DNA from: Lentisphaerae bacterium GWF2_50_93 | GTDB lineage: Bacteria; Verrucomicrobiota; Lentisphaeria; Victivallales; GWF2-50-93 | Reading direction: 5' to 3' | Assembly (NCBI GenBank): GCA_001804815.1 | Contig: MHBI01000101.1 | Location: 44,791 to 108,790, forward strand | DNA: 64,000 bases | Shown here: positions 36,851 through 43,800 of the stretch, in pieces | How positions within the stretch are numbered: position 1 is the stretch's first letter | Layout of the letters: every line of letters starts with the position of its first letter | Position numbers and translations under genes: made by a program | The notes under the pieces: generated by a model | What the model saw: only the letters and a program-made list of their open reading frames with translations | The model's database searches: none | What the model was told of the DNA's origin: nothing

Positions 36851-37519
36851 AAAAAATCTCCGTTTTGTTGCTGACACAGTTCCGCGTGAAAGGTTGCAGG
36901 CATATCAATATTCTGATAGAGTGTCCTACAAAAAATCACGCAGTGGTTGTATCCATTTTCCTAGTCATATAAATCCCTACTAAGTTGATAAGGTAGCAAC
37001 ATCCATGCCATCTTGAAATATAAGGCCGGCATGTCCTTTTTCGTGCAGCAAATTACAGACAAACTCAGTTAGGCTTGCCTATGCATGGCGCCCCTAATGG
37101 CATAGAGGAAATCACAGCCCGAAAAGCCGGGTTCCCTGGATCAGGTAAATACTGCAAGATTGTCGTACACGGAAGATTTATCCGTAAAATAAGCCGAGAC
37201 TCTATTCCTGGACAGCCTCGCATAATAGTAGACGAGAAGTCAACGCAGTGTCCAGCCGTATTGTCAGTCCCTGCTGAAGAAGGACAAAGCCATCCACTGT
37301 AGAAACCATTCCTTCCGGCTCGAATGTTATTCTACAGCACCTGGACGGATCCAACCCGCGGAAGCGCAGAACATAAGTATCGCGGTCGACAGACACATAT
37401 TCGAGAGCGCACCAGCCCGAAGCGTCGGCTGAAATAAAACGGAAGGGATTTGCCGCATCAGAGACGGATATCAAGTCTGGAAGAGCCCGAAGGGGAACAT
37501 TGAAACAAAGACTCTTAAC

Positions 37520-37795
37520 ATGTATTCCCTTGTATGTACCGATACTTTCCTGAGAACGGCAAAGAAGTTCTTCAAGAAACATCCTGAGCTCAAACCTGTA
37601 TTTGAGGATGTTGCAAGATAACTTCAGGAAAACCCTCAGAACCCATCTCTTCGCTTCCACCACCTGAAAGGTATCCACAAAGGCAGATCTTCAGTGAGCC
37701 TTACCTATTCATACCGAATCGTCGTGACGATAGAACTCACCGAAAAGGAAATCTTCCTCCTCGGCATTGGCAGCCACGACGAAGTCCATAAATAA
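37520..37795 (+). pseudogene. RelE/ParE-superfamily toxin with an in-frame TAA at codon 34
   Basis: The translation is 'MYSLVCTDTFLRTAKKFFKKHPELKPVFEDVAR*LQENPQNPSLRFHHLKGIHKGRSSVSLTYSYRIVVTIELTEKEIFLLGIGSHDEVHK'. The stop is at 37619-37621. Confidence 0.55.
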
Positions 37796-37815: not shown

Positions 37816-39165
37816 TCAGATCTCCCTGTTCAGGAAATCCACACTTTCCAGCTTGAGCCTTATCGCATTTGCGAATTTCGCAGCATCGGAGCCGTCCACC
37901 ACGCGGTGGTCGGCGCTTACCGTCACCTTCATCATGTCGCGGATCACGATCTGTCCGTCCTTCACCACTGGTGTCGGTGTCGCCGATGAGACTGCGAGGA
38001 TCGCAGATTCCCCGGGATTTATGATGGCCGCGAAGTTCTCGACGTTCAGCATGCCCATGTTGGAAATCGTAAACGTTCCGCCCTTCATCTCCTCTGGCTG
38101 GAGCTTTCCGGTCCTGGCCTTCTCTGCGAACTCCGCAACCTCGGACTGGATCTCGTCAAGCGCCTTCCTGTCAGTATTCCTGAGGACAGGAACGACAAGC
38201 CCGGTCTCGAGACTTACCGCCACTCCAATATTCACCTTGGACTTGTATTTCGCTGTGATTCCGTCGCTCTCGGCGTTCAACATCGGAAATTCCCTGAGGG
38301 CAAGCGCGACCGCCTTGATTATGAATACATTCACGCTCAGGCTGATCCCCTGCTCCTTCAGGATCTTCCGCTTTCTCGATACTTCGGTCATATCGATCGC
38401 GACCGTAACATAGAAATGCGGTATGCGCTGTTTGGACTCGGTGAGACGACGCGCAATGATCTTCCTCATGTTCGAGAATTCGCGAGGCTTCTCGGAAACC
38501 GCCGATTTGACATCGGCAAGTGTGACCCGTCCGCTGTCTCCGCTTCCTTCTATCGCGAGGAGTTCAAGATTCTCCTTCTTCGCCAGGTTGAATGCGGTCG
38601 GAGTTATCAGTTTCTTTTTGTAGCCGGAGCTTTCGAGATAATTCCTAACGTCCGCCTCCGTGACGCGTCCAACATCACCGCCAGTACCTGAAACCTTGTT
38701 CAAGTCGATCAGATAGTCCTCGGCGAATTTCCTCGCCCTGGGTGACGGTTTTGCCTTGAACGCAGGAGCGGATGGCGCAGAATACACCTGCTGAATCTGC
38801 TGAGTTGCCGGCGCCTCTGCGGATTTCGCAGCAGCAGCAGATGGAGCAGCTTTTGCTTCAACCGGTTTCTTTGCCTCTGCCTTCTTCTCAGGCGCCTTCG
38901 GCATTTCAATCTTCGGAATTTCCTCTCCAGGATTCCCGAGAACAGCGCATGTCGCCATTACAGGAACTTCCTTGCCGGCGGGAATAATTATCTTGAGAAG
39001 CGTCCCTTCGAACTGCGACTCGACTTCAAGTACGGCCTTGTCGGTCTCGACCTCGAAAAGGATGTCCCCCTTCTTGATCTTGTCGCCTTCCTTGACGCGC
39101 CATTTTTCTATCTTGACAGTCTCTTCGGACTGACCAAGTTTCGGTATCGGAACAAGAGTTGACAT
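37816..39165 (-). CDS. Dihydrolipoamide acyltransferase (E2) of a 2-oxoacid dehydrogenase complex
   Basis: RBS GGAGG precedes the ATG at 39165. The lipoyl domain has 'EVETDKAVLEVES', the E3-binding domain has 'PRARKFAEDYLIDLNKVSGTG', and the catalytic motif is 'DHRVVDG'. Confidence 0.9.
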   Translation of the reverse strand: MSTLVPIPKLGQSEETVKIEKWRVKEGDKIKKGDILFEVETDKAVLEVESQFEGTLLKIIIPAGKEVPVMATCAVLGNPGEEIPKIEMPKAPEKKAEAKKPVEAKAAPSAAAAKSAEAPATQQIQQVYSAPSAPAFKAKPSPRARKFAEDYLIDLNKVSGTGGDVGRVTEADVRNYLESSGYKKKLITPTAFNLAKKENLELLAIEGSGDSGRVTLADVKSAVSEKPREFSNMRKIIARRLTESKQRIPHFYVTVAIDMTEVSRKRKILKEQGISLSVNVFIIKAVALALREFPMLNAESDGITAKYKSKVNIGVAVSLETGLVVPVLRNTDRKALDEIQSEVAEFAEKARTGKLQPEEMKGGTFTISNMGMLNVENFAAIINPGESAILAVSSATPTPVVKDGQIVIRDMMKVTVSADHRVVDGSDAAKFANAIRLKLESVDFLNREI

Positions 39166-39185
39166 AAAAAACCTCCAGTTTTTAA

Positions 39186-39241
39186 ATTCGAAATCCGAAT
39201 ATCGAAATCCGAAACAATCGGAATCAAATTCGAAATCCAAA
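39186..39241. repeat. Array of 14-nt-period TCGAAATCCGAA words (left flank of the four-helix-bundle gene)
   Basis: TCGAAATCCGAA occurs at 39188 and 39202, a degenerate copy at about 39216, and TCGAAATCCAA at 39230. Confidence 0.85.
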
Positions 39242-39302
39242 ATGAATACAAACAATATTAATTTTCTGATTTCCTATAAATTGAGCCAAATATATTTGTC
39301 AG

Positions 39303-39620
39303 TTATATTCCTTCCTGTAAAAGCCTCTGTCTCTCCTTTTCCAAGGAAGAGTCATCTTCTGCGGAAATTAATTTCAGCCAAAACACACTCTCCTTGGCTT
39401 CTTTCCTGCAAATCTTTATCCTCATGATAAAGTCTTTCTTGCTCAAAGCTTCATTTGCTTCAATATAATTTGCACCAACGGATCCTGAAGCTCTAACAAG
39501 TTGTTTTGAATCTTCTATATTCGGAATATCCTTCTTAAGCTTCCTAACAAATACTCTGACATCACGAGCAAATTCAAATGTCCTCTCTTCTAAATCATAT
39601 TTTTTGCTATTTTCAGGCAT
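39303..39620 (-). CDS. Four-helix-bundle protein (TIGR02436 / '23S rRNA intervening-sequence protein' family)
   Basis: 105 aa. 'LEERTFEFARDVRVFVRKL...QLVRASGSVGANYIEANEALSKKDFIMRIKICRKEAKESVFWL' is the hallmark of this family. Confidence 0.85.
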   Translation of the reverse strand: MPENSKKYDLEERTFEFARDVRVFVRKLKKDIPNIEDSKQLVRASGSVGANYIEANEALSKKDFIMRIKICRKEAKESVFWLKLISAEDDSSLEKERQRLLQEGI

Positions 39621-39667
39621 TTTTATTGTATTTGTTTACCTATTATTGATACTCAATTCGTGATTGT

Positions 39668-39692
39668 TTCGAATTTCGACATTCGAATTTCG
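39668..39692. repeat. Inverted counterpart array (right flank of the four-helix-bundle gene)
   Basis: TTCGAATTTCG occurs at 39668 and 39682 (14-nt period). The reverse complement GTCGAAATTCGAAT matches the left unit TTCGAAATCCGAAT at 12 of 14 nt. Confidence 0.8.
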
Positions 39693-39695
39693 TGC

Positions 39696-41999
39696 TTATT
39701 TCAAGCTCCTTGCTGCCGCAATCATGTCTTCGACGGACGGCAGGAATGCCTTCTCGAGCGAATACGCCTGCGGGGCTATTCCGTTCTTCGCGCCGACTTT
39801 CACGACAGGAGCATCAAGGTGGTCGAAGCAGTTTGCGGTAACCTGCGCGACGATCTCACCGGTAAAGCTTCCAATGTCGACACACTGGCTTATCGCCACA
39901 CAGCGTCCGGTCTTCCTTACGGATTCAAAGACAGTCTGCCAGTCGAATGGAACAAGCGTCCTGGGATCAATGATTTCTACACTGATGCCTTCTTCCTCAA
40001 GCTTGCTGGCTGCCTTGATCGCATCGACCACTGCCGGCCCCCAGACAACGAACGTCACGTCCTTGCCTTCCTTTACGATCTTCGCCTGCCCGAACGGAAT
40101 GAAATATTCCTCTTCCGGCACAACATCCTTGTTTCCATATAGGAGCTGGCCTTCTACGAACACTACGGGGTTGTCGTCGCGGATCGCAGTCTTGATGAGC
40201 CCCTTCGCATCATATGCGTTTGAAGGGTAGGCTACATATGTGCCGGGGATGTGGCAGAACATCGATTCAAGCGACTGCGAGTGCTGTCCGCCGTATCCCT
40301 TGCCACCGCCTACACTGCAGCGGATGACCATCGGGACTTTCACGTTGCCACCGGTCATGTAATGCCATTTGGCGGCCTGGTTGGAGATCTGGTCGGAAGC
40401 CATGAGCGCAAAATCCATGTACATCAGTTCGACGACCGGACGATATCCAGTCATCGCCATTCCAACACCGGTTCCGCATATGCATGCCTCTGAAATAGGA
40501 GTGTTGAATACGCGGCCTCGGCCGAAATATTCAAGGAACCCCTTGCTGAGCTTGAACGCACCGCCGTAGTCGGCAACATCCTCGCCGTACACGACGACAC
40601 GCGCATCACGCTCCATTTCCTCAAGGATTCCTTCCTTGATGGCGTCGCGGTAGTTGACCCTGCCCTCGGCATCACGCTTCACTGACGGACGTGCGCCCTT
40701 CTTATCCAGCTTCTGATAAACTGAAGGGACTTTTTCGCATGTGGTGTCAGCATACATATATTTGATGACGTCCTTCGGATCAGGATCGGCGGAATCAACA
40801 GCCTGGCGCGCGGCCTTTGCATTCCTGTCGCTGACCTTCTTCTCGAGACCGGCGAGGACATCTTCCTTGAATACGCCTTCATCCAACAGGCGTTTCCTGA
40901 ATGCCGTCACCGGATCAACCTTCTTCCATCTTTCCTCCTCGTCCTTCGTCCTGTACTCATTGCGCGGATCGGAAAGTGAATGTCCATAGTAGCGGTATGT
41001 ATCGAACTCAAGAAGGACAGGACCTTTCCCCTCGGCTATGATCTTCTTTGCCCTGGCGATAGCTTCGCGGACTGCCATGACATCCATGCCGTTCACGACT
41101 TCGGCGTGCATGTTGTCGTTGTCAAAACCGGCGGCCCTTCTTGCAAGACAGTCGACTCCGGTGACTTCACCGTCAGCGCGGCCAGTCATGCCGAAATGGT
41201 TGTTGATGATGCAGTATATGATAGGAAGTCCGAAATTTATGCTTGAGAGCTTCTTGTTCGTGAACTGGTCCTGAGCGGCCCAGTTGAGGGATTCGAGGAC
41301 GACGCCGTTGGCGTATGCCCCATCACCTGCGAAACAGCAGACGACCTTGCCCTTTTTATCCTTGTCGATGTCTATGCGCGAGGTCATCGCAGCTCCGGTC
41401 GCGATTGGAACTCCGCCGCCGACGATTGCGTTTGCGCCGAGATGTCCAACCCTGAAGTCGAAGATGTGCATGCCGCCGCCCCTGCCCTTGCCATAACCTG
41501 CTTCCTTGCCGAAAAGTTCTGCGATCGTGCGGAACACATGATCCTGCATCACGGCTTCAAGGAGAGCCTCGCCTGCGAGATTCGCAAATTCCGGACAGCG
41601 TTCCCTGAGTTCCTTTTCGCTCATCTTGCGGATCGCGAAATATCCCTTTGAGATCGAGTCGCCATGCCCGCGGTGCGTCGAGGTGATGTAGTCGGATATG
41701 TTAAGTATCGAACATGCTCCGGCGCAGGTGGCCTCCTGTCCGATCGAAAGATGCGTCGGACCGCGGTACTCGTAGTCCTTGATGCATTCATATGCGCCGG
41801 TGCGCAGCTTGAGGATCATTTCCTCGAACTCGCGGACGACCAGCATGCATTCGTAAAGCTCAAGAATGTCCTCTTTCCTGACGGCGCCATCCTTCAGGTC
41901 ATCCTTGATCATCCTGTTATACGCATAGCCTTCGATAGGCTGGAGCTTGTACGTGCGTTTTTTGAAATCCGGACCCAGATCGCTGTAATAGTTGCCCAT
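39696..41999 (-). CDS. 2-oxoacid dehydrogenase E1 component, fused alpha and beta subunits (TPP-dependent)
   Basis: 767 aa. The N-terminal half is E1-alpha-like ('GPTHLSIGQEA', 'FAGDGAYANG'). The C-terminal half is transketolase-like E1-beta ('FNTPISEACICGTGVGMA'). Confidence 0.9.
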   Translation of the reverse strand: MGNYYSDLGPDFKKRTYKLQPIEGYAYNRMIKDDLKDGAVRKEDILELYECMLVVREFEEMILKLRTGAYECIKDYEYRGPTHLSIGQEATCAGACSILNISDYITSTHRGHGDSISKGYFAIRKMSEKELRERCPEFANLAGEALLEAVMQDHVFRTIAELFGKEAGYGKGRGGGMHIFDFRVGHLGANAIVGGGVPIATGAAMTSRIDIDKDKKGKVVCCFAGDGAYANGVVLESLNWAAQDQFTNKKLSSINFGLPIIYCIINNHFGMTGRADGEVTGVDCLARRAAGFDNDNMHAEVVNGMDVMAVREAIARAKKIIAEGKGPVLLEFDTYRYYGHSLSDPRNEYRTKDEEERWKKVDPVTAFRKRLLDEGVFKEDVLAGLEKKVSDRNAKAARQAVDSADPDPKDVIKYMYADTTCEKVPSVYQKLDKKGARPSVKRDAEGRVNYRDAIKEGILEEMERDARVVVYGEDVADYGGAFKLSKGFLEYFGRGRVFNTPISEACICGTGVGMAMTGYRPVVELMYMDFALMASDQISNQAAKWHYMTGGNVKVPMVIRCSVGGGKGYGGQHSQSLESMFCHIPGTYVAYPSNAYDAKGLIKTAIRDDNPVVFVEGQLLYGNKDVVPEEEYFIPFGQAKIVKEGKDVTFVVWGPAVVDAIKAASKLEEEGISVEIIDPRTLVPFDWQTVFESVRKTGRCVAISQCVDIGSFTGEIVAQVTANCFDHLDAPVVKVGAKNGIAPQAYSLEKAFLPSVEDMIAAARSLK

Positions 42000-42170
42000 T
42001 TTCTTCTTTCTCCTTTAATGTGGCCGAGATACCATGCGGCAATTCCGCGATGAACCCCATGCCAAACCTTTATTTAATTTTATTGATTATATCAGCACAT
42101 GCCTTGCGGCATTAAGTACCAACAAAACTCACACAACTAAAGTTGTGAACTCCTACATTCCCCATTCTTA

Positions 42171-42201
42171 CTGTTCGTAGTCAAGCTCGCAAGAGCTGTT
42201 C
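42171..42201 (+). repeat. GTAG-hairpin repeat, copy B
   Basis: CTGTTCGTAGTCA, then AGCTC-GCAA-GAGCT, then GTTC. Confidence 0.6.
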
Positions 42202-42217
42202 TTCTTCTCAGTTTCAT

Positions 42218-43113: not shown

Positions 43114-43141
43114 ATGTACACAATAATAAAAGAGGTGAATC

Positions 43142-43378
43142 TTGAAGCAGCTGAGCGTAAGAGAGGCAAGAGCACAGTTCTGTACGCTGATCGATGCGGT
43201 TTCGCATGGCGAAACTGTTGTCATCACACGGCATGGCAGGAAAATTGCCGATCTACTGCCTTTTCACAAAGCCAAAAAGAAACTTCCCTCAATGAAGAAA
43301 TTCCGAGAGAGCATTAAAATTAATGGAGAGCCATTGAGCAGAACTGTAATGAAACAACGCGACGAGGAGAGGTTCTGA
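43142..43378 (+). CDS. Phd/YefM-family antitoxin
   Basis: 78 aa with a TTG start after the RBS AAAGAGG. 'LSVREARAQFCTLIDAVSHGETVVITRHGRKIADLLPF'. Confidence 0.8.
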   Translation: MKQLSVREARAQFCTLIDAVSHGETVVITRHGRKIADLLPFHKAKKKLPSMKKFRESIKINGEPLSRTVMKQRDEERF

Positions 43379-43380
43379 GC

Positions 43381-43800
43381 ATGTTTTACGCGGATACCTC
43401 AATAGTTGTCGCCTATTATTGCGCTGAAGAGAAAAGTTCTGAGGTTGAAAAGCTCATCGTTGGTTCTGAAGATATCGCGATAAGCATGCTTGCAGAAGTT
43501 GAATTCTATTCCGCACTGTCACGCAAGGTCAGGGAGAGGACTGTCACGGCAAAAGACGCCCGTAGAATATCCTCGCAGTTTGAACTTCATTTGAATGGGG
43601 ATTATTTCACCATCCTGCAGCTTGAATCATCTCATTATGCCATTGCAAGAAACTGGATTTCAAATTTTGACAACAGCCTTAGGCCCCTTGATGCTCTACA
43701 TCTCGCAATCGCATTCTCCAATAACATTCCAATCGCCACATCCGACAAGACTCTTGCGAAATCCGCGGACATGCTGGGTGTCGGCTCAATTCCCATATGA
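43381..43800 (+). CDS. vapC: PIN-domain toxin (VapC-type)
   Basis: 139 aa with 'MFYADTSIVVAYY', 'AEVEFYSAL', 'LDALHLAIA' and 'IATSDKTL'. It starts 2 nt after the antitoxin stop. Confidence 0.85.
   Translation: MFYADTSIVVAYYCAEEKSSEVEKLIVGSEDIAISMLAEVEFYSALSRKVRERTVTAKDARRISSQFELHLNGDYFTILQLESSHYAIARNWISNFDNSLRPLDALHLAIAFSNNIPIATSDKTLAKSADMLGVGSIPI

Follow-up and report, generated by a model that had tools for sequence, protein, structure and literature searches.

In the 64,000-nt stretch of Lentisphaerae bacterium GWF2_50_93 analysed here (contig MHBI01000101.1, positions 44,791 to 108,790; hereafter the window), the genes for the E1 and E2 components of a 2-oxoacid dehydrogenase are separated by an inserted cassette of about 516 nt (39183-39698), in which a small open reading frame (ORF) for a four-helix-bundle (4HB) protein, of the family first noticed in 23S rRNA intervening sequences (IVS), is bracketed by inverted tandem arrays of heptanucleotides. 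The cassette belongs to a family that is found across phyla in the spacers of operons, where it lies in the sense orientation of its neighbours and usually flush with the stop codon of the upstream gene. On balance we consider it probable that these are mobile ORF cassettes of the IVS type, which rely on the host for transcription and in which the arms make up a stem of the RNase III type. The features of the junction, in the order in which they are transcribed, are:

39696-41999, minus strand: E1, a fused alpha/beta 2-oxoacid (pyruvate/acetoin-type) dehydrogenase of 767 aa; upstream host gene
39662-39698, minus strand: 5' terminal array (5' arm in the RNA), TAAGCA-CGAAATT-CGAATGT-CGAAATT-CGAAACA-ATC; core arm 39662-39692
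39621-39661, minus strand: leader between 5' arm and ATG, 41 nt, A/T-rich, without a clear Shine-Dalgarno sequence
39303-39620, minus strand: 4HB gene, 105 aa, PF05635/TIGR02436 by its profile matches
39258-39302, minus strand: relic of the 4HB C-terminus, 14 in-frame codons (LTNIFGSIYRKSEN) and the ancestral stop (39258-39260), from read-through translation
39220-39257, minus strand: inner 3' spacer with degenerate extra units (one at 39226-39243 and a weak one near 39216), from the repeat search
39183-39219, minus strand: 3' terminal array (3' arm in the RNA), GATTGTTT-CGGATTT-CGATATT-CGGATTT-CGAATTTA; core arm 39189-39219
39172-39176, minus strand: ribosome-binding site of E2, GGAGG, read directly; just beyond the stem and the last unit, 6 nt before the E2 ATG
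37816-39165, minus strand: E2, dihydrolipoamide acyltransferase of 449 aa (Pfam Biotin_lipoyl, E3_binding, 2-oxoacid_dh); downstream host gene

The cassette at the E1-E2 junction

The original prediction had placed a 23S IVS protein gene between E1 and E2 on the same strand, and this is confirmed by profile searches: the 105-aa ORF clears the cut-offs of both PF05635 (43.8 bits, against 33.8 required) and TIGR02436 (58.9 bits, against 24), and it lies with E1 (which matches the Pfam families E1_dh, Transket_pyr and Transketolase_C and the NCBIfam models of pyruvate dehydrogenase (PDH) E1) and E2 on the minus strand, within an E1-E2 gap of 530 nt. The cassette is set off by its base composition (GC 0.31-0.39 vs 0.52-0.59 in the flanking genes), and the TAA stop codon of E1 (39696-39698) makes up the initial three bases of its first terminal unit. 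The 4HB gene is its sole ORF; no transposase was found nearby, no other Pfam family was matched at the reporting threshold of 0.001, and no promoter-like or terminator-like sites were found on the cassette's minus strand. Elsewhere in the 64-kb window there is no second 4HB gene, array or like cassette; the tRNA search of the window returned none, and the Rfam search gave no match at the gathering threshold (with noise only at E < 1) and no rRNA match.

The arms are arrays of four heptads with a basic period of 7 nt (CGAANNN), so that the 14-nt spacing seen in the original prediction is present as an apparent period of alternating heptads. The word on which that description was founded, TCGAAATCCGAA, has two exact copies (39188 and 39202), one copy with a single mismatch (39230) and inverted copies at 39668 (one mismatch) and 39682 (two mismatches), all as previously placed; the additional unit put at about 39216 turned out to be degenerate (~8/12, offset 16 nt). 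The longest inverted repeat (arms 39189-39219 and 39662-39692, 31 nt) is 90% Watson-Crick complementary, and direct reading shows a G·U pair in the minus-strand RNA at each of the three positions that are not Watson-Crick, which makes 31/31 positions pairable. When the region 39160-39705 of the minus strand is folded, the stem formed by the 31-nt arms closes the whole cassette in the minimum-free-energy structure (-146.8 kcal/mol vs -109.4±5.5 for shuffles; z = -6.75; 0/100 shuffles as good), which bears out the earlier expectation that the arms would be predicted to pair around the ORF. Flanking inverted repeats at the score level of the window cassette were encountered in 33/3266 ORFs scanned, as against 0 in the reversed-sequence control.

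The 105-aa gene, on the other hand, cannot be retained as such, since it is the product of a premature in-frame TAA at codon 106, through which the last 14 residues kept by homologues (118-121 aa) have been lost. The 14 relic codons that follow this TAA align with the 118-aa orthologue of locus L004 (which in its full length matches PDB 2rld, E = 9e-11), and the window ORF covers only 5-81 of 106 profile positions in PF05635 and 3-90 of 109 in TIGR02436, short of a complete four-helix domain. Three independent assemblies give the identical 105-aa product, so the premature stop is real; the nonsense codon shows that the window copy has begun to decay. Its leader also departs from the family, at 41 nt vs the 0-6 nt that separate arm and ATG in canonical members. 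The 4HB protein has thousands of homologues (those of 70-80% identity stemming from Planctomycetes, Phycisphaerae, Aminicenantia and anammox metagenome-assembled genomes), and the ratio of nonsynonymous to synonymous substitutions (Ka/Ks) among pairs of the window's subtype (4HB-A, see below) is 0.05-0.15 in 10/11 scorable pairs and 0.29 in one pair. Judged from these sequence comparisons the ORF is under purifying selection in the family, and the protein must therefore be made and needed somewhere, though the window copy is broken.

Within the order Victivallales, the cassette is an insertion into a hot spot. Among 80 orthologous E1 loci (obtained from a scan of GTDB species genomes with E1), 53 are cassette-free, with a computed E1-E2 gap of 16-86 nt; direct reading of the E2 start, where made, brings the gap to ~16-31 nt, which holds only a stop codon, a ribosome-binding site and a start codon. 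Gaps of ~0.5-0.9 kb with one small sense-strand ORF are found in 12/80 loci, and A/T-rich remnants occupy the junction in L008 (131 nt), L020, L021, L044 and L061. The insertion suspected from the window alone is thus matched by junctions that vary in both presence/absence and cargo (53 short, 12 ORF-bearing, several remnants among the 80). None of the outcomes by which the original prediction would have been refuted was encountered. By Pfam, the ORFs in the gaps encode either PF05635 4HB proteins (L012/14, L022, L027, L034, L047, L058) or PF13366 proteins of the PD-(D/E)XK GxxExxY family (L010, L011, L013/15, L016). The species closest to the window (L008, synonymous divergence (Ks) ~0.65) has at this site the remnant of a decayed GxxExxY cassette, L004 (Ks ~0.8-0.9) carries the window's own 4HB-A cassette type, and L012 and L013 (Ks ~0.8-0.96) hold different cargo; such differences in cargo and occupancy among close species argue for turnover within times too short for Ks to saturate. 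At orthologous positions, the cassettes are conserved at least as well as the flanking genes. The arms of the window and L004 are 87-94% identical while the synonymous sites of the ORF are saturated (Ks 1.4), and a closing stem of 29 pairs is kept, with a few two-sided changes, in four type-A cassettes of the E1-E2 site (the window and three others).

The remnants L008, L020, L021, L044 and L061 form a decay series at this junction: in L061 (2592-3386) the GxxExxY gene is frameshifted and its AATCCTGT arrays are long, in L008 (4343-4475) the first codons of the gene persist, and L021 (3188-3382) consists of two arrays over 193 nt, without an ORF, and resembles a miniature inverted-repeat transposable element (MITE). 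In L022 (5466-6354) the E1-E2 gap measures 887 nt, and a unit of ~125 nt, made up of the 5' array and ~27 initial codons of the 4HB gene, is triplicated in tandem before the intact gene. A G+C-rich hairpin, which may be a native attenuator or processing stem, replaces the minimal 16-31-nt spacer in the cassette-free junctions of L035-L037, L040 and L045 (gaps 66-86 nt).

Cargo types, arrays and operon contexts

Each cassette is bracketed by inverted tandem arrays, the motif of which goes with the type of cargo:

4HB-A: CGAAATY heptads; the type of the window
4HB-B: AAWCGGNG; L034, and the site between the DeoR gene and E1 in L004, L008, L009 and L012
4HB-C: AGTGTCAA; L012/14
4HB-D: TTCAAT-type; L058
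GxxExxY: ACAGGAT; L010, L011, L013/15 and L016

The 4HB-B copies between the DeoR gene and E1 (in L004 at 1119-1590) are second cassettes of their operons; the window has an unrelated 218-nt spacer at the corresponding place (42000-42217), which makes this a second polymorphic site in the same operon. GxxExxY homologues that are 70-75% identical occur across Deltaproteobacteria, Dehalococcoidia and Planctomycetes, and are located between two ABC-permease genes, before pilin-like genes or in a transporter leader. Two of their cassettes (L192 and L204) have GACAGGATAACAGGAT upstream and ATCCTGTTATCCTGTC downstream, and another (L198) has the 5' array alone. The 5' array of L204 (GACAGGATAACAGGAT) starts with TTGACA, 17 nt before a TGATAT/TATAAA-like box. 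The ACAGGAU motif of the GxxExxY cassettes (L010, L192, L204) resembles the GGA binding sites of CsrA/RsmA; as a general explanation this idea was rejected, for the other array types are devoid of GGA. Membership of the 4HB cargo in a defence system was likewise dismissed, given that the PADLOC models yielded no match for three 4HB subtypes (and only weak Cas4-like similarity for GxxExxY).

Beyond the E1-E2 junction, 80 metagenomic loci with close homologues were fetched (~66 of them distinct). Most of the distinct homologues are flanked by CGAAAT-type arrays, and ~50 non-redundant ones reach an inverted-repeat score of 30. The canonical order is TTAAAT-YCGAA-NNN-CGAA-NNN-CGAAAT-YCGAAACAAAT, 0-6 nt, ATG, an ORF of 121 aa, stop, ~27 nt and the inverted array, and the arms have the family consensus nTAAATY-CGAANNN-CGAANNN-CGAAATY-CGAAACAA. 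With genes called by a simple longest-ORF rule, the upstream gene is co-oriented with the cassette in 49/54 cases and the downstream gene in 48/53; 34 cassettes share their orientation with both neighbours, and none is opposed to both. Sense contexts with called genes place the 4HB gene between leuA-leuC and leuD-leuB, between rplJ-rplL and a terminator followed by a tRNA, between groES-groEL and dnaJ-grpE, and between CYTH and DAGK. The stop codon of the host gene lies -4 to +6 nt from the first column of the arm in 19/28 cassettes (often overlapping the TAAAT of the arm), and the start of the downstream gene lies at most ~22 nt from the end of the 3' arm in 21/38; the window copy conforms to both placements. 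In L093 (342-725) and L138 (1098-1841) ordinary genes have type-A arrays on both sides, which would place a cassette in each of two adjacent spacers of the same operon (compare the DeoR, E1 and E2 genes of the relatives of the window).

No rRNA context was detected by Rfam for type-A cassettes in 20 loci. Carriage by phages was considered and rejected, as viral contigs contained no close relatives of either the 4HB or the GxxExxY cargo. Among cassette pairs, those of high identity share their flanks. More distant 4HB genes are found on cyanobacterial plasmids: on pANACY.01 of Anabaena cylindrica PCC 7122 (L207, 1806-2567) one exactly fills the cas1-cas2 spacer and has AGTAAAA heptad arrays, and on a plasmid of Planktothrix agardhii (L208, 1711-2533) another fills the spacer between drmD and an MmeI-like gene in a DISARM locus, where it is flanked by GATTTAC and CCCCAAT heptad arrays of the classical short tandemly repeated repetitive (STRR) type. 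The STRR heptanucleotide repeats of cyanobacteria, for instance CCCCAAT, were reportedly described by Mazel and colleagues in 1990.

Mechanism and rival explanations

Cassettes of the family lodge in sense orientation in the short spacer that separates the stop codon of a host gene from the ribosome-binding site of the next one, in housekeeping operons; in the window, we propose, the cassette is transcribed within the E1-E2 mRNA. In the polycistronic RNA the arrays are predicted to form a stem of ~31 bp with the ORF in its loop, and in vivo this stem would most likely be an RNase III-type processing and translation-gating structure; cleavage would split the E1 from the E2 mRNA, and would free or gate the cassette ORF, whose start sits just inside the stem. 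Dependence on host transcription is suggested by the 34:0 co-orientation, the operon contexts and the lack of promoter-like or terminator-like sites of its own, and the stop-codon-flush placement further suggests a coupling to ribosomes that terminate on the host gene. As for RNase III processing and the resulting uncoupling of E1 and E2 mRNA, we argue by analogy from the rRNA precedent of the Coxiella IVS (428-444 nt, with an ORF of the 23S IVS protein family, there named S23p), in which RNase III cuts in the middle of a 28-bp terminal stem (PMC4990558).

Several observations weigh against this reading, the majority of them concerning the question whether base pairing of the arms is under selection. 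When the arms are defined in a strand-symmetrical manner, their mismatches comprise 60 sense G·U vs 46 sense A·C (p = 0.2); in the other cassette types the ratio of G·U to A·C runs in the opposite direction (5:13), and strand asymmetry was rejected, as not significant, as evidence of RNA-level selection. Across 34 canonical cassettes the pairing within cassettes is 81.0%, vs 80.7±0.6% with the 3' arms swapped, so that 174/500 arm-swap shuffles pair as highly as the real cassettes, and a separate permutation of arm pairing gave z = -2. The central triplet is unpaired in 23-28 of the 34, and the Y positions are unpaired in about half. Position-specific covariation of the arms was rejected too, there being no within-cassette excess: the slightly raised covariation score (0.109 vs 0.090) can be traced to inherited variants, CGAAA to CTAAA, that the two arms share. 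The neutral outcome of these pairing tests means that the complementarity stems from conserved inverted motif cores, not from demonstrable base-pair selection. The typical structure in the family is a helix of ~15 bp, a 3x3 internal loop and ~13 more pairs, and the window copy is unusually perfect. (Duplex folding on long flanks was discarded on account of spurious extensions into coding sequence.) To the same side of the balance belong three observations on mobility and orientation: near-identical cassettes in different flanks were not found (different-flank pairs reach at most 88% DNA identity), no consistent target-site duplication was seen beyond the TAAAT/ATTTA termini, and the Anabaena 4HB copy is antisense to the cas genes, for which reason the orientation rule may not hold in all subfamilies.

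Because the covariation results are neutral, two of the alternatives stay alive. The arrays might be terminal or subterminal protein-binding repeats like transposon ends, recognised at the DNA level by the cargo protein or by a factor acting in trans, with the RNA hairpin incidental; this we hold to be unlikely, though it has to be taken seriously. It would account for the association of each cargo clade with a motif of its own across phyla and contexts (CGAAATY with 4HB-A, AAWCGGNG with 4HB-B, AGTGTCAA with 4HB-C, ACAGGAT with GxxExxY), for the conservation of motif cores alongside variable positions that do not co-vary between the two arms, for the absence of G·U strand asymmetry, and for the MITE-like appearance of ORF-less or decayed derivatives (L021, 193 nt; L008, 131 nt), while GxxExxY has a PD-(D/E)XK nuclease fold. 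A purely DNA-level transposon is at odds with the 34:0 co-orientation and the placement flush with stop codons, and with a window that has no transposase near the cassette, no target-site duplication and one copy in 64 kb; moreover, a spacing of 7-8 bp places successive sites on different faces of B-DNA, and we know of no catalytic activity of the 4HB protein. Alternatively, the 5' array could be an A/U-rich heptanucleotide translational leader that, independently of both RNase III and a Shine-Dalgarno sequence, drives translation of the ORF through coupling to ribosomes terminating at the host stop, the inverted 3' copy being only an anti-leader or insulator. Such a leader would fit the position of the ATG 0-6 nt past the 5' array without a Shine-Dalgarno sequence in canonical members, the overlap or abutment of host stop codon and array, the heptad arrays around the distant Anabaena and Planktothrix 4HB genes, and the arrays of heptanucleotide direct repeats that in Beggiatoaceae and cyanobacteria stop ~1 nt short of start codons, and for which a post-transcriptional role has been proposed (PMC4679880); it leaves the near-constant presence and conservation of the inverted copy unexplained, the window ATG lies 41 nt from the array, and no translated gene precedes the relatives borne on rRNA. 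We judge this leader model quite improbable.

Two further explanations are effectively excluded. A role dedicated to the dehydrogenase operon, with the 4HB protein or the hairpin as its regulator or accessory (setting, for example, the E1:E2 stoichiometry), could be read from the retention of a cassette with conserved arms in two species at Ks ~0.8-0.9 (the window and L004); with 53 orthologous junctions devoid of the cassette, GxxExxY or other 4HB subtypes at the same site, the same cassette type in leu, ribosomal-protein and chaperonin operons, and a broken ORF in the window genome, such a host-adaptive spacer is very hard to believe. A chance A/T-rich spacer of low complexity with a spurious ORF could draw on the modest window-wide enrichment of TCGAAATCCGAA (19 matches with at most two mismatches vs 11±3.3 expected), and is nonetheless the most improbable explanation of all: 6/19 of these matches fall together within the 530-nt spacer, no control equals the score of the 31-nt inverted repeat (0/3266), the fold stands at z = -6.75, and the ORF scores above curated cut-offs and has thousands of homologues.

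Surroundings, known relatives and wider significance

Upstream of the DeoR regulator gene, on the opposite strand, lie genes for a PhdYeFM-type antitoxin (43139-43378, plus strand) and a PIN-domain toxin (43381-43800, plus strand). A 158-aa ORF without a Pfam match (37202-37678, minus strand) is located between E2 and a glucose-6-phosphate dehydrogenase gene; in the relative L004 the genes after E2 are different (a GFO/IDH/MocA oxidoreductase and a short-chain dehydrogenase). The window is rich in a quasi-palindromic 11-12-mer, GCGRANNYCGC(A), with 49 strand matches (~30 sites; e.g. 4580, 9030 on the minus strand, 25662, 38829 on the minus strand, 49554 and 57178 on the minus strand) vs 3.9±2.0 expected, and the identical 12-mer GCGAAATCCGCA recurs six times within unrelated coding regions; it looks like a highly iterated palindrome or an uptake-signal-like motif. 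A link of this palindrome (GCGAAnTTCGC) to the cassettes was rejected, as it is lineage-specific and unrelated to their distribution: its density is 0.2-0.6 per kb in Victivallales loci (up to 1.9 in L022) vs 0.02 in other cassette-bearing loci.

The original idea of an IVS-like cassette in an mRNA operon is upheld by the terminal inverted repeats and the PF05635 ORF. Like the IVS of 23S rRNA in Leptospira and Coxiella burnetii, the cassette has a terminal stem of ~28-31 bp enclosing a PF05635 ORF, a similar size (428-444 nt there, ~516 nt here), a sporadic, horizontally acquired distribution and ORF decay in some hosts (PMC4990558). Unlike them, it lies between the protein genes E1 and E2 of an mRNA operon and not in helix 25 or 45 of 23S rRNA, its arms are tandem heptad arrays with the host stop codon within the terminal unit, and RNase III cleavage, known for the IVS, is predicted only. 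It was not filed as an rRNA IVS because of its location, though three defining features are shared. With the Correia elements (CREE/NEMIS) of Neisseria it has in common the terminal inverted repeats, transcribed intergenic insertion and presence/absence polymorphism; their mRNA hairpin is bound or cut by RNase III and alters the expression of neighbouring genes (PMC2649163). CREE are, in contrast, ORF-less, 70-157 bp long and present in hundreds of copies per genome, whereas the cassette occurs once in 64 kb, has arms made of motif arrays and, at ~516 nt with an ORF that is under purifying selection in the family, falls outside the short (<300 bp), non-coding MITE/Correia-like class. The heptanucleotide arrays, both the STRR repeats of cyanobacteria and the TAACTGA repeats of Beggiatoaceae (PMC4679880), are similar in being intergenic, in consisting of 7-nt units and in being oriented with the downstream gene and ending just before its start; they differ as direct repeats without defined cargo or inverted partner, in place of an inverted pair around a small ORF. 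The accessory protein Avd (bAvd) of diversity-generating retroelements has a homologous four-helix-bundle fold (PMC10053308), and the proteins of 4HB-B cassettes show sub-threshold matches to PF22296 (bAvd). The window protein has no PF22296 match, however, and neither a reverse transcriptase nor a template or variable repeat adjoins its gene. Free-standing homing-endonuclease genes of phage T4-type clusters are also small and optional, sit between conserved co-oriented genes, are expressed by read-through and vary in presence. The 4HB protein, in contrast, is not a known nuclease and has no close relatives in viral contigs, and the bracketing inverted arrays are foreign to such genes. Full-text searches turned up papers on rRNA IVS, Avd-like PF05635 proteins and heptanucleotide arrays, and in none of them were 4HB or GxxExxY cassettes in mRNA operons described, although an earlier description elsewhere is possible.

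Until now IVS have passed for an rRNA oddity whose ORF has no known function. The same type of cassette is now found in mRNA operons (PDH, leucine biosynthesis, ribosomal-protein and chaperonin operons), where it keeps to strict rules: it is oriented in sense, sits flush with the stop codon upstream and carries terminal arrays specific to its cargo. We venture, as a speculation far more likely to fail than to hold, that the ORF-bearing 23S rRNA IVS may be the tip of a large undescribed class of transcript-lodging, self-recognising mini-cassettes, whose cargo protein would recognise its own ends (as DNA or RNA) and which would target the spacer between stop codon and ribosome-binding site in highly expressed operons. 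The recognition of its ends by the cargo protein is implied by arrays that are apparently conserved as motifs without detectable base-pair selection. If true, the class would comprise at least two unrelated cargo families (Avd-like 4HB and GxxExxY PD-(D/E)XK), each with its own terminal array of 7-9-nt motifs, and by extension the STRR-type heptanucleotide arrays of cyanobacteria, long unexplained, would acquire a function. Two questions become tractable: how a 0.5-kb element with only a 120-aa protein inserts, persists and is expressed, and how it affects the processing of operon mRNA and the stoichiometry of multi-subunit enzymes. Moreover, two very large uncharacterised families (PF05635 and PF13366/GxxExxY) gain a genomic context, together with a link to heptanucleotide arrays whose role has been unknown since about 1990.

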